64,000 bases of DNA from Escherichia coli O157:H7. Its GTDB lineage: Bacteria; Pseudomonadota; Gammaproteobacteria; Enterobacterales; Enterobacteriaceae. Every line of letters starts with the position of its first letter. The stretch's first letter is position 1. Of the stretch, positions 3,001 to 6,000 are shown piece after piece. The position numbers are program-made. The stretch lies in assembly GCF_013167455.1 (NCBI RefSeq), contig NZ_CP038328.1. One strand, 5' to 3'.

Positions 3001-6000
3001 GCCACTGGAAGGGCGGTGTAGCACCAGCTCACCCAATGCACGCAGAATAAAAAACGAAAACAAGCCACAAATTAAATAAACCAGTGCCAGTGCTGGACCC
3101 GCCATTTGCAGTCGGGCTCCTGCACCTAAAAACAAGCCGGTGCCAATCGCGCCGCCAATGGCGATCATCTGTACCTGGCGATTGCCCATCGCTTTGTGAT
3201 ACCCCTCTTCGTGGGCATTAAGCCAGCGGCGTTTCGCGGCGTGTTGATCTGAAGTGTCGGTGTCGTGTTTACTCATTGCTCTCCCTGATTGCTTTAATGA
3301 AAAAGTCATATAAGTTGCCATGAACAATGTTTATTCATCCTGGCGATGATAGTTATCACCATTATTCTTTATGGGTATAAAACTATCGGCGCAGCATCCT
3401 ACCCGTTATCGATAAACGATGCAAAACATCCCCTTACAATCCTGAAGGGGATTAATACAACTGACGAAAAAATGACAAATCCTTTTGCTGGTTAACCTTT
3501 GTACTGTCCTACATTTAATCTTTAAAAGATTGTGAGGGGCATATGATTAAGGTGTATGGCGTACCCGGATGGGGCTCTACAATCAGTGAGCTGATGCTAA
3601 CACTGGCTGATATTCCTTATCAGTTCGTTGATGTCAGTGGTTTTGACCACGAGGGAACTTCACGCGAGTTATTGAAAACCCTGAACCCGTTGTGTCAGGT
3701 TCCGACACTGGCACTGGAAAATGACGAGATTATGACGGAGACAGCGGCGATTGCATTGATGGTTCTCGATCGTCGCCCGGACCTTGCGCCACCGGTTGGG
3801 CGTGCCGAACGTCAGCAGTTTCAACGGTTATTGGTCTGGCTGGTTGCTAATGTCTATCCAACGTTCACTTTCGCCGATTACCCTGAGCGTTGGGCATCTG
3901 ACGCACCTGAACAGTTAAAGAAGAATGTTATTGAATATCGTAAATCGCTTTATGTCTGGCTGAATTCACAATTGACCGCTGAACCTTATGCGTTTGGTGA
4001 GCAACTAACGCTGGTGGACTGTTATCTTTGCACTATGCGCACATGGGGGCCTGGGCATGAATGGTTTCAGGATAATGCCACGAATATCAGTGCGATTGCT
4101 GATGCAGTATGTCAGTTACCAACGTTACAAGAAATACTAAAAAGGAATGAAATTATTTGAGTGGGATACCAGAAGATTATGTTATTTATTATTCAGTAAC
4201 TTTATCCACAATGATGTGCGTAATTAATTAGATTCATGTTATGTTTTTTAATTTATATCACACTCCCTTTCATTCAGCTTGTCTATTTCATTTCCTCTGA
4301 AAAGAAACTAACTATTCACATTGTGCAGATGTTTCACTTGTTATCACAGGTATTCTATAATCTCAAAATGTTTTTAATGATGGATATGCTCGGAGTTGGA
4401 GATGCAATTAATATTAATACAAATAAAAATATCCGGCAGGTATGCTAAAAGGATAAATGGCGTTCTCTGTATTTATTCGCAATTATCTGTAGGACAAATA
4501 TGGAGAGCTTGATGAGTCAGAGCTAAAACAGCAATTGATTAATAAACATGTTGATTTATTCAAGAAAATGGATGTATTTTAAATATTGATTCTTAATATA
4601 ACCTAATCAATAGATTATCACGTGAGAGCTGCACATTATTGGAGGGGCAGGGGAAAACACCATTTTGGGAACAATGAATCAGGTACTCTTACCACTGAAG
4701 CAAGATCATCCGGGCACCAGGTGGTGGTGCAGTGCTTTGGAAATGGTCCCCTCGGGGGAGTTGTCATTATTTTCTATGCTATTTGCTTATGATATTCATC
4801 AGGTGAATTTAATAAATTCCTAATTTGAAATATCCACTATTAAGCCAGTGTTTAACGACGTTAAGATGGCAATGTGCAGATCATGTTATCAGGGTGGGGC
4901 GGTAGCGTATATTCCTTATACAAATCATCATTCATTTCAATGATTGTTATTAAATTATTTATTGTTGTGAATAAAAAGACATTATGAATATTGGTTTGAC
5001 TTTGCATATCAGGTTTTTTATTACTCGCTGTAATGTACGAGCCTGTCGTGAATAACGTCGAGAACCCATCCGTTGCGTTTGTGATTATTTTGTTGACTAA
5101 ACAGACACCCGTTTCTCTGAAGTAAAATCCCAGACTAAATCATCACATAACCATGACATTTTTCTGATATTCCCCGGTAACGCCAGATGTCGACTCACTT
5201 ATTTCATCCGCCCGACATGTTGTACATGCAATATGTGCGGATTATTATTCATTTTCACGGAGGTTGCTATGTCAACCGGATTACGTTTCACGCTGGAAGT
5301 GGACGGCCTGCCACCGGACGCGTTTGCGGTGGTCTCCTTTCATCTGAACCAGTCACTCTCTTCACTTTTTTCCCTCGACCTTTCTCTGGTCAGTCAGCAG
5401 TTTCTTTCCCTTGAATTTGCGCAGGTGCTGGACAAAATGGCCTACCTGACGGTATGGCAGGGCGATGACGTACAGCGCCGGGTGAAAGGTGTGGTGACCT
5501 GGTTTGAACTGGGGGAGAACGACAAAAACCAGATGCTGTACAGCATGAAGGTGTGCCCGCCGCTGTGGCGCACAGGGCTGCGCCAGAACTTCCGTATCTT
5601 CCAGAATGAGGACATCGAAAGCATACTCGCTACGATCCTGAAAGAAAACGGTGTGACCGAGTGGAGTCCGCTGTTCAGCGAGCCGCATCCTTCCCGTGAG
5701 TTTTGTGTCCAGTACGGCGAAACTGATTACGATTTCCTGTGCCGGATGGCGGCGGAGGAAGGCATCTTCTTTTATGAGGAGCACGCGCAAAAAAGTATCG
5801 ACCAGAGCCTGGTCCTGTGCGACACCGTGCGTTATCTGCCGGAGTCCTTTGAGATCCCCTGGAACCCGAACACCCGTACCGAGGTGAGCACCCTATGCAT
5901 CAGCCAGTTCCGCTACAGCGCACAAATCCGCCCTTCTTCCGTGGTGACCAAGGACTACACCTTTAAACGACCCGGCTGGGCAGGGCGTTTTGATCAGGAA

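Follow-up and report, generated by a model that had tools for sequence, protein, structure and literature searches.

A probable H-NS-bound promoter and leader region upstream of the orphan vgrG-rhs operon in Escherichia coli O157:H7

We have analysed the AT-rich interval between yncG and vgrG in a 64,000-nucleotide stretch of Escherichia coli O157:H7 DNA, referred to as the window, and propose that it probably serves the orphan type VI secretion operon vgrE(vgrG)-rhsE as an H-NS-bound promoter and long leader, composed of two parts with different histories. As an H-NS-silenced promoter/leader region it would be of an already known kind. Composition, architecture, paralogy, the pattern of conservation and the absence of RNA and protein signatures were established in this analysis; for H-NS occupancy, for the binding of RNA polymerase-sigma70 and for the weak binding of PhoB we rely on the K-12 literature. 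The interval contains, and is bounded by, the following features, given in window coordinates.

3543..4160, plus strand: yncG, glutathione S-transferase family (GST_N and GST_C Pfam matches, PGAP annotation), the left neighbour of the spacer
4161-5268, no strand assigned: the AT-rich spacer, 1108 bp, 35.1% GC
4236..4448, plus strand: yncH, an annotated 70-aa ORF of the DUF5445/YncH family, of doubtful coding status
4449..4792, no strand assigned: unique, single-copy middle segment with a GC-richer patch (4620-4790, 48% GC), present in the yncH-type architecture only
4747..4759, plus strand: short GC hairpin, TCCCCTCGGGGGA, followed by a poor T-run, terminator-like
4793..5268, plus strand: vgrG-upstream module, putative regulatory/leader DNA travelling with vgrG, defined by paralogy with the cusS locus
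4793..4915, no strand assigned: head of the module (120 bp), better conserved than any other part of the spacer and kept in every ansP-yddH locus architecture
4805..4819, no strand assigned: perfect 6-bp inverted repeat GAATTT-N3-AAATTC within the head, read from the sequence
4852..4912, no strand assigned: core of ~60 bp containing ACGTTAAGATGGCAATGTGCAGATCATGTTATCAGGGTGGGGCGGTAGCGTATA, defined by conservation across architectures
4886..4913, plus strand: TTATCA-16-TATATT, a sigma-70-like match overlapping the core, by consensus only
4996..5024, plus strand: TTGACT-17-TATTAC, the promoter predicted for the K-12 RpoD genomic SELEX peak (PMC3946193), located in the window sequence
5152..5169, minus strand: PhoB ChIP-seq site TATCAGAAAAATGTCATG, weak, with a score of 1 in K-12 (PMC10294691, Table 1)
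5201, no strand assigned: last spacer base kept in K-12, where a deletion removing vgrG fuses the spacer to the interior of rhsE
5259..5271, plus strand: Shine-Dalgarno GGAGG (5259-5263) and vgrG (vgrE/Z2262) start codon (5269), invariant in 8 of 8 aligned copies

An earlier note on this DNA had described 4161-5268 as an AT-rich block with no ORF of at least 60 aa apart from a weak yncH candidate, and the coordinates and the difference in composition (35% GC versus 49%) are correct. GC fraction is 0.351 in the spacer compared with 0.493 in the whole window, 0.472 in yncG, 0.554 in vgrG and 0.611 in rhs, and only 4% of the 1108-nt windows within the 64 kb are equally AT-rich. The gene boundaries match the PGAP annotation of a 100%-identical record (NZ_AP018488.1), with the yncG stop at 4160 and the vgrG start at 5269, an in-frame ATG at 5233 being merely an upstream ATG of vgrG. 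yncH is the sole ORF of at least 60 aa wholly within the spacer; a 75-aa ORF (5187-5414) begins in the spacer and enters vgrG out of frame. Since chance gives ORFs of such length, the longest six-frame ORF averaging 72 aa in first-order Markov simulations of spacer composition (P = 0.49 for at least 70 aa), the lack of long ORFs is uninformative by itself.

The interval corresponds to the known yncG-yncH-vgrE(Z2262)-rhsE spacer of the vgrE orphan locus (Z2253-Z2262 in EDL933); a search of 5426 complete E. coli genomes recovered at least 80% of its length in 3539. On its left, yncG is under purifying selection (pN/pS 0.11-0.29). On its right, VgrG carries Phage_GPD, Phage_base_V and Gp5_trimer_C domains and is followed in the PGAP annotation by an RHS element core protein; the locus fits an orphan vgrG-rhs T6SS effector island, in which a VgrG spike gene precedes an Rhs core protein. 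Natural strains tolerate IS1 insertions and deletions within the spacer.

The left part of the spacer, 4161-4792, is lineage-specific AT-rich DNA carrying yncH. Its middle segment has no similarity to the spacers of the cusS locus or of B2-like or L009-type strains, folding of the GC patch gave z-scores of +0.8 and -0.8, and terminator-like hairpins are not above chance (1 seen, 1.7 expected). The right part is the module, which is ~78% identical (77-80%) over about 475-505 bp to the sequence 5' of the cusS-adjacent vgrG. At this second orphan locus, vgrG-2 (Z0700-Z0707 in EDL933), the head, core, conserved blocks, Shine-Dalgarno and start are all as observed here. The two loci differ in that the left 275 bp of the cusS-locus region are unrelated, indels of 4, 8 and 11 nt separate the copies, the PhoB site is absent beside cusS, and the genes downstream of the cusS copy are vgrG, a DcrB-like gene and rhs, whereas here vgrG is followed by rhs. 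In strain N3 the cusS-locus copy is of the yncH type, which indicates exchange between the two loci. On the evidence of this paralogy, the module belongs to the vgrG-rhs island and appears to move or recombine with it.

The spacer had previously been suggested to mark the insertion boundary of the island. A junction with vgrG-linked DNA does exist, as homology with the paralogous cusS island breaks at about 4764-4793; its position is inside the spacer, and relative to other architectures collinearity is lost already upstream of yncG, at about 3427-3460. Judged from these alignments, the suggestion is only partly supported, and an insertion boundary would lie inside the spacer and not at its edges. 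Strains lacking the island, put forward as a means of defining the junction, do keep parts of the spacer, but they are deletion derivatives that retain 411 to 1041 bp of it or only ~100 bp of the head. A naive empty site was not seen among the strains compared.

Conservation within the module is concentrated in the head, which is 97.6-99.2% identical among orthologues. B2-like strains have it 5' of a small effector-vgrG operon, ST131 has it next to ISAs1, and in L009 it precedes unrelated genes. The inverted repeat is kept in the yncH and cusS copies, one arm carrying a single mismatch (ATATTC) in B2-like copies. The core is 94% identical to the cusS copy and 76-90% identical to the B2-like and L009 copies, in which the DNA flanking the shared element is just 28-45% identical, and a 54-nt stretch of it is 100% identical in strain Z1323. 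A scan of 100,044 species genomes detected the core pattern outside E. coli in two related records, Escherichia sp. E1V33 and a MAG labelled Citrobacter, together with 9 matches in unrelated taxa, approximately the number estimated by chance; plasmid and phage collections yielded mislabelled chromosomes only. The degree of conservation suggests that the core, with the head, is the most constrained cis element of the spacer and most likely a promoter-proximal protein-binding site. More tentatively, the head, comprising palindrome and core, may be a dedicated Escherichia-specific cis element common to orphan T6SS effector cassettes and bound by a candidate factor, whether an anti-silencer, an activator or a recombination protein, a reading to which we attach a small but appreciable probability.

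The corresponding K-12 region, between yncH and rhsE (b1455-b1456), is 98% identical over the first 1041 of the 1108 bp of the spacer. H-NS binding is listed for this region in Table 1 of PMC10294691, with Kahramanoglou 2011 as the source, and genomic SELEX places a sigma-70 (RpoD) promoter between yncH and rhsE, with H-NS flagged there (PMC3946193). The suggestion that the interval may be an H-NS-silenced promoter region is thus supported by literature on the orthologue, as far as that table and the SELEX report extend. The H-NS, RpoD and PhoB data are all from K-12, in which the deletion took the last 67 bp of the spacer, the whole of vgrG and the 5' part of rhsE, leaving only a pseudogene downstream, whereas O157 has the complete vgrG-rhs operon. 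By analogy between the two strains, we infer that the K-12 findings are also valid in O157. H-NS-silenced promoter regions of acquired T6SS genes, such as those of the EHEC T6SS, resemble this spacer in three ways: AT-rich DNA precedes acquired genes of higher GC content, H-NS occupies the DNA, and sigma-70-like promoters are weak or multiple. Activity of the EHEC T6SS was demonstrated in an hns mutant, according to the statement in PMC7216683 that cites Wan 2017; at the vgrE orphan locus silencing is, by comparison, putative.

Promoter-like matches in the spacer are no commoner than in shuffled sequence. Most cusS copies have lost 8 nt from within the SELEX-associated promoter (4996-5024), which breaks its spacing. 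The match overlapping the core (4886-4913) is shared, position for position, by the yncH and cusS copies, and its -10 is degraded in B2-like copies. The PhoB site (5152-5169) is matched exactly in the window and is not conserved in cusS copies; PhoB sites in H-NS regions are reported to be transcriptionally inert. Consensus scans of the spacer for the H-NS nucleation motif, Fur, RcsAB, PhoB, CRP and IHF gave nothing above Markov simulations. On visual inspection we discarded a -24/-12 match for sigma-54 because of its spacing, and resemblances to sigma-32, Chi, KOPS and dif/XerC sites were partial or not conserved.

Two alternatives concern products that the spacer itself might specify. If yncH did encode a small protein, only ~820 bp of the spacer would be non-coding, and part of the AT-rich DNA would be the promoter and terminator of yncH. 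Its 70-codon ORF is intact in all divergent loci examined, the C-terminal third is well conserved, a promoter-like match (10/12) and a terminator-like hairpin lie nearby, and it has Pfam/NCBIfam family status, matching the YncH profile (PF17520) with E = 5.6e-41 and 138.6 bits against a cut-off of 25 over model-covered residues 19-70. That family, however, consists solely of Escherichia orthologues of yncH; all 158 homologues found are from Escherichia, with identity of at least 84% among the matches listed. The ORF is missing in B2-like, ST131 and L009-type strains, it has no Shine-Dalgarno, its length is that expected by chance, and the best promoter-like match falls within the ORF itself (4333-4361). 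Furthermore, yncH is the least conserved segment among orthologous loci (94-97% identity), with a pN/pS of ~1 (0.6-1.5) compared with 0.1-0.3 in the adjoining genes, values that are suggestive rather than decisive because SNP counts are small. Combined, these features suggest that yncH behaves as non-coding sequence and is probably not a protein, its standing as a weak candidate being unchanged by annotation and a DUF5445 assignment that come with no sign of protein-level constraint; a genuine gene is doubtful, though not far-fetched. A low Tn5 insertion index, recorded at yncH and ydcD in K-12 TraDIS data, would be in keeping with a coating of protein on the DNA, as in the H-NS-bound reading.

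It is very improbable that vgrG is controlled from the spacer by a small RNA, by a cis-regulatory RNA structure or by a leader peptide, for example one encoded by the ORF from ATG 4872 (MCRSCYQGGAVAY), although a leader of up to ~350 nt would be of unusual length and the first 13 codons of this ORF are kept in yncH and cusS copies, with 2 of 3 substitutions synonymous. The ORF is without a start codon in L009 and L016, and its conservation coincides with the DNA core. An Rfam scan of 3300-5600 at E<=10 gave no match within 4161-5268; the sub-threshold PyrR-like, snoZ43 and GNAS-AS1 matches are all outside the spacer and consistent with chance. Single-sequence folding of the head, core and GC patch on both strands gave z-scores of -0.8 to +1.6, and RNAalifold on seven orthologous and paralogous leaders detected compensatory change in none of 73 predicted pairs. 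In the paralogue or in orthologues, each small ORF is either interrupted by indels or stop codons or shows a pN/pS of at least 1: ORFs 4622-4792 and 4665/4674-4823 contain stop codons in L021 and L023, and those at 4848/4872-4943, 4874-4987 and 5033-5125, and at 4861-5007, 4959-5069 and 5097-5198 on the minus strand, are frameshifted, stopped or have a pN/pS of ~0.6 to >1 relative to the cusS paralogue. Seven small ORFs besides yncH, a set excluding the ATG-4872 ORF, were never called as protein among 15 billion sequences. The possibility raised earlier of a hidden small RNA or small protein was therefore not borne out, there being no Rfam match, fold signal, covariation or conserved small ORF.

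Two further alternatives give the spacer a different function or none. The head and core (4793-4912) could be a recombination or junction sequence for the exchange of effector cassettes (vgrG-rhs, small effector-vgrG, unrelated small-gene arrays, ISAs1), surviving as the left-end homology anchor of a variable region. The core does form the left border of at least four unrelated downstream contents at a single locus and is present at a second, in several architectures similarity ends sharply on its right or its left, and in strain N3 conversion has given the cusS locus a yncH-type copy. We nevertheless consider this unlikely: a mere homology anchor needs no conservation above that of its flanks, no right-end copy, flanking direct repeat, or second copy or direct repeat of the core or any other spacer segment was found in the window or related loci, and no integrase or recombinase is annotated at the locus. 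The ST131 junction is accounted for by the ISAs1 end, AGGGAAAGATC, which abuts TATC. It is also quite improbable that the spacer has no function and is decaying where it lies, with a core gene on one side and an acquired operon on the other, its AT-richness and H-NS binding being passive results of mutation bias. Tolerance of IS1 insertions and deletions, retention of the spacer in K-12 despite vgrG loss and the reported inertness of PhoB sites are compatible with decay, but conservation is mosaic, with blocks far above yncH and above synonymous sites of the flanking genes, and the core is kept across architectures.

The reading that we favour remains that of a silenced promoter and leader. 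H-NS filaments on the AT-rich spacer would keep the vgrG-rhs operon silent, and relief of silencing would allow transcription to begin within the module (4793-5268). The module would carry one or more promoters, a surface to which H-NS and perhaps other factors bind, and an untranslated leader ending in a strong Shine-Dalgarno, the head and core (4793-4912) acting as the promoter-proximal protein-binding site. We infer both the position of transcription start and the role of the core.

The chief value of these observations is in annotation: a long AT-rich interval that seems "empty" is probably the kind of silenced control region to be expected in front of an acquired operon for toxin delivery. 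If a dedicated factor does bind the head, its role would be either to tie the expression of dispersed vgrG/effector operons to the T6SS or to bring about the exchange of cassettes at ansP-yddH and cusS. A non-coding block kept across very different gene contents at two loci may provide a handle on how orphan vgrG-rhs operons are switched on.

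The interval between yncG, which ends at 4160, and vgrG, which starts at 5269 behind a GGAGG at 5259-5263, is AT-rich and nearly devoid of ORFs, as the earlier note had described. GC content is 0.351, compared with 0.493 for the window, 0.472 for yncG, 0.554 for vgrG and 0.611 for rhs, and just 4% of windows of the same length are equally AT-rich; the AT-richest 1.1-kb stretch in the window is not the interval and lies at about 26,750-27,860 (GC 0.319). yncH (4236-4448) is the only ORF of at least 60 aa wholly inside; a 75-aa ORF (5187-5414) begins here too but extends into vgrG in a different frame. 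In simulation, the longest six-frame ORF expected from the composition of the interval is 72 ± 19 aa, with P = 0.49 for a 70-aa ORF, and the scarcity of ORFs thus carries no evidential weight.

A sequence search detected all 1108 bp at 100% identity in O157:H7 chromosomes, for example NZ_AP018488.1, and at least 80% of the spacer length in 3539 of 5426 complete E. coli genomes. The gene order (PGAP) is pqqU, yncE, ansP (minus strand), yncG, yncH, VgrG, RHS core protein, two small hypothetical genes, an IS1 fragment, ydcC (ISAs1, frameshifted), pptA (internal stop) and yddH. In EDL933 the counterpart was published as the "vgrE orphan locus" (Z2253-Z2262), in which vgrE is Z2262. At 12,300-13,900 (16905-18894 in L001, one of the sequence extracts of related loci, each numbered in its own coordinates), the O157 ydcC transposase gene is frameshifted and pptA carries an internal stop, with the IS1 fragment immediately upstream; the island is therefore decaying on its right side. 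IS1 copies also occur within the spacer in some strains (hits H13 and H20; L003 6412-8167), and in strain FACU 2024 IS1 elements replace the DNA from spacer position 412, counted from 4161, to ydcC.

The last 476 bp of the spacer (4793-5268), here termed the module, match a second site at ~78% identity in most complete E. coli genomes. This site lies upstream of another vgrG, the first gene of a vgrG-DcrB-like-rhs island adjoining cusS. In genomes lacking the cusS island, homology stops inside the cusS 3' end, ~20-25 nt ahead of the stop codon (L004 about 5692-5717), and thus the entire 590-740-bp AT-rich stretch before the cusS-locus vgrG is island DNA and the last cusS codons are supplied by the island. 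An alignment of eight module sequences is mosaic, with well-conserved blocks between variable stretches and indels of 4, 8 and 11 nt, and all eight share the same vgrG Shine-Dalgarno sequence and start codon. The cusS-locus copy of strain N3 (L029 3548-4093, aligned with 4793-5268) is of the yncH-locus type and not the usual cusS type, so that the module has been exchanged between both orphan vgrG loci; the sequences indicate gene conversion or recombination. Combined, the cusS match and the N3 exchange place the right 43% of the spacer in the vgrG island. The earlier note's view of the interval as the probable insertion boundary of the island is borne out only in part. A junction with locus-specific DNA does exist, at about 4764-4793, but it is internal to the spacer, and strains without the vgrG-rhs island are deletion derivatives.

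Left of this junction, no sequence similarity links 4161-4792 to its counterparts in other architectures. In B2-like strains yncG is reduced to a decayed remnant (~70% identity), yncH is absent altogether, and collinearity with O157 breaks upstream of yncG at about 3427-3460. Near this break, a sub-threshold PyrR-like Rfam match at 3419-3533 on the minus strand (24.8 bits against a threshold of 54, E = 1.4) spans an ansP-yncG intergenic hairpin, TCCCCTT…AAGGGGA, and is probably due to chance or a terminator. yncH matches Pfam DUF5445, a family consisting of this Escherichia ORF alone (158 matches, all Escherichia where named, with at least 84% identity among those listed). Its pN/pS is 0.6-1.5 across five divergent alleles, compared with 0.11-0.29 for yncG and 0.08-0.17 for the vgrG 5' end, and its upstream sequence contains no Shine-Dalgarno motif. 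The remaining ORFs of 4161-4792 contain stop codons in orthologues, and none is on record as a called protein. The low Tn5 insertion index at K-12 yncH and ydcD could reflect protein- or H-NS-coated DNA, a suggestion which is ours and not that of the published study; yncH cannot be essential, as whole lineages lack it.

The suggestion that a small RNA or small protein is hidden here found no support. Rfam has no match within the interval, folding energies do not differ from those of shuffles, and covariation is absent from all 73 pairs predicted for the putative leader. In the paralogue, all small ORFs of the module have a frameshift or a stop codon or evolve without constraint; the sole exception is the initial 13 codons of an ORF from 4872, which coincide with a conserved DNA core and whose start codon is missing in two architectures.

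The first 120 bp of the module, the head, recur across very different ansP-yddH architectures and contain the core, ~60 bp in length:

4793-4915: head
4805-4819: perfect inverted repeat GAATTT-N3-AAATTC, in the head
4852-4912: core
4886-4913: sigma-70-like match TTATCA-16-TATATT, overlapping the core and kept in both paralogue types

Among orthologous loci, including that of one cryptic-clade Escherichia, the head is conserved best (97.6-99.2%) and yncH worst (94-97%). Core identity to O157 is 94% in the cusS copy and 76-90% in the B2-like and wlxctx60 copies, compared with 28-45% for DNA flanking the shared element; in one strain a 54-nt stretch is 100% identical. In B2-like strains and Escherichia sp. 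E1V33 the head precedes a small gene by ~250 bp, and a further ORF and vgrG-DcrB-like-rhs follow. The ORFs between head and vgrG (L005/L006/L007 about 5300-6260; L015 6262-7145) encode 176 and then 118-120 aa. The former, annotated as 'type IV secretion protein Rhs' or hypothetical, contains HEMMH (HExxH) in its DNA translation, and the two may therefore form an effector/immunity pair. The strains that carry them, Escherichia sp. E1V33 included, are also those with the decayed yncG. In ST131, which lacks vgrG and rhs, the head directly abuts an ISAs1 element. Strain wlxctx60 and one MAG retain 37 nt of the core downstream of yncG, 27 nt upstream of an unrelated small-gene array in the former and abutting an ISAs1 end in the latter. 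The left end of ISAs1/H-rpt (ydcC) starts AGGGAAAGATC in five contexts:

L008 5097-5130
window 12417-12450
L002 10810-10840
L003 8352-8385
L016 about 100-125, minus strand

In ST131 this end meets the core at TATC/AGGG, so that the core's own TATCAGGG is recreated; this resembles the outcome of an IS-associated deletion that removed the entire vgrG-rhs region. When 100,044 species genomes were scanned for the core pattern, only two Escherichia-like records matched, and a motif scan of the spacer detected no enrichment of known transcription-factor consensus sequences. As a minority alternative, cassette exchange may use the core as its homology anchor.

Most economically, the interval can be read as a silenced control region of a familiar type. 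AT-rich DNA preceding a GC-rich acquired operon would be coated by H-NS, one or more promoters and a long leader would lie inside the island-borne module, and head and core would be the most constrained cis element. The proposed H-NS-silenced promoter region is supported by literature on the K-12 orthologue, in which spacer positions 1-1041 are kept at 98% identity, followed by a deletion into rhsE. Shimada et al. 2014 (PMC3946193) list a constitutive RpoD promoter in the yncH/rhsE intergenic region, TTGACT-17-TATTAC, equivalent to 4996-5024, with an H-NS flag. Fitzgerald et al. 2023 (PMC10294691) report that PhoB gives a weak ChIP-seq peak ahead of rhsE, and the PhoB motif TATCAGAAAAATGTCATG has an exact match at 5152-5169 on the minus strand. 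As cited in PMC10294691, the region is marked as H-NS-bound after Kahramanoglou et al. 2011, and the authors argue that PhoB sites of this kind, within H-NS regions, are mostly without effect. FlhDC genomic SELEX also gives a weak peak in the spacer.

K-12 genome-wide data sets already contain this region with its H-NS binding and promoter, and the locus has been described in EHEC as an orphan T6SS locus. A limited literature search found no earlier description of the paralogous module upstream of vgrG, of the exchange of this module between loci or of the ~60-bp conserved core, and these are incremental additions. The core would be of greater significance if a regulator or recombination system devoted to orphan effector cassettes targeted it.
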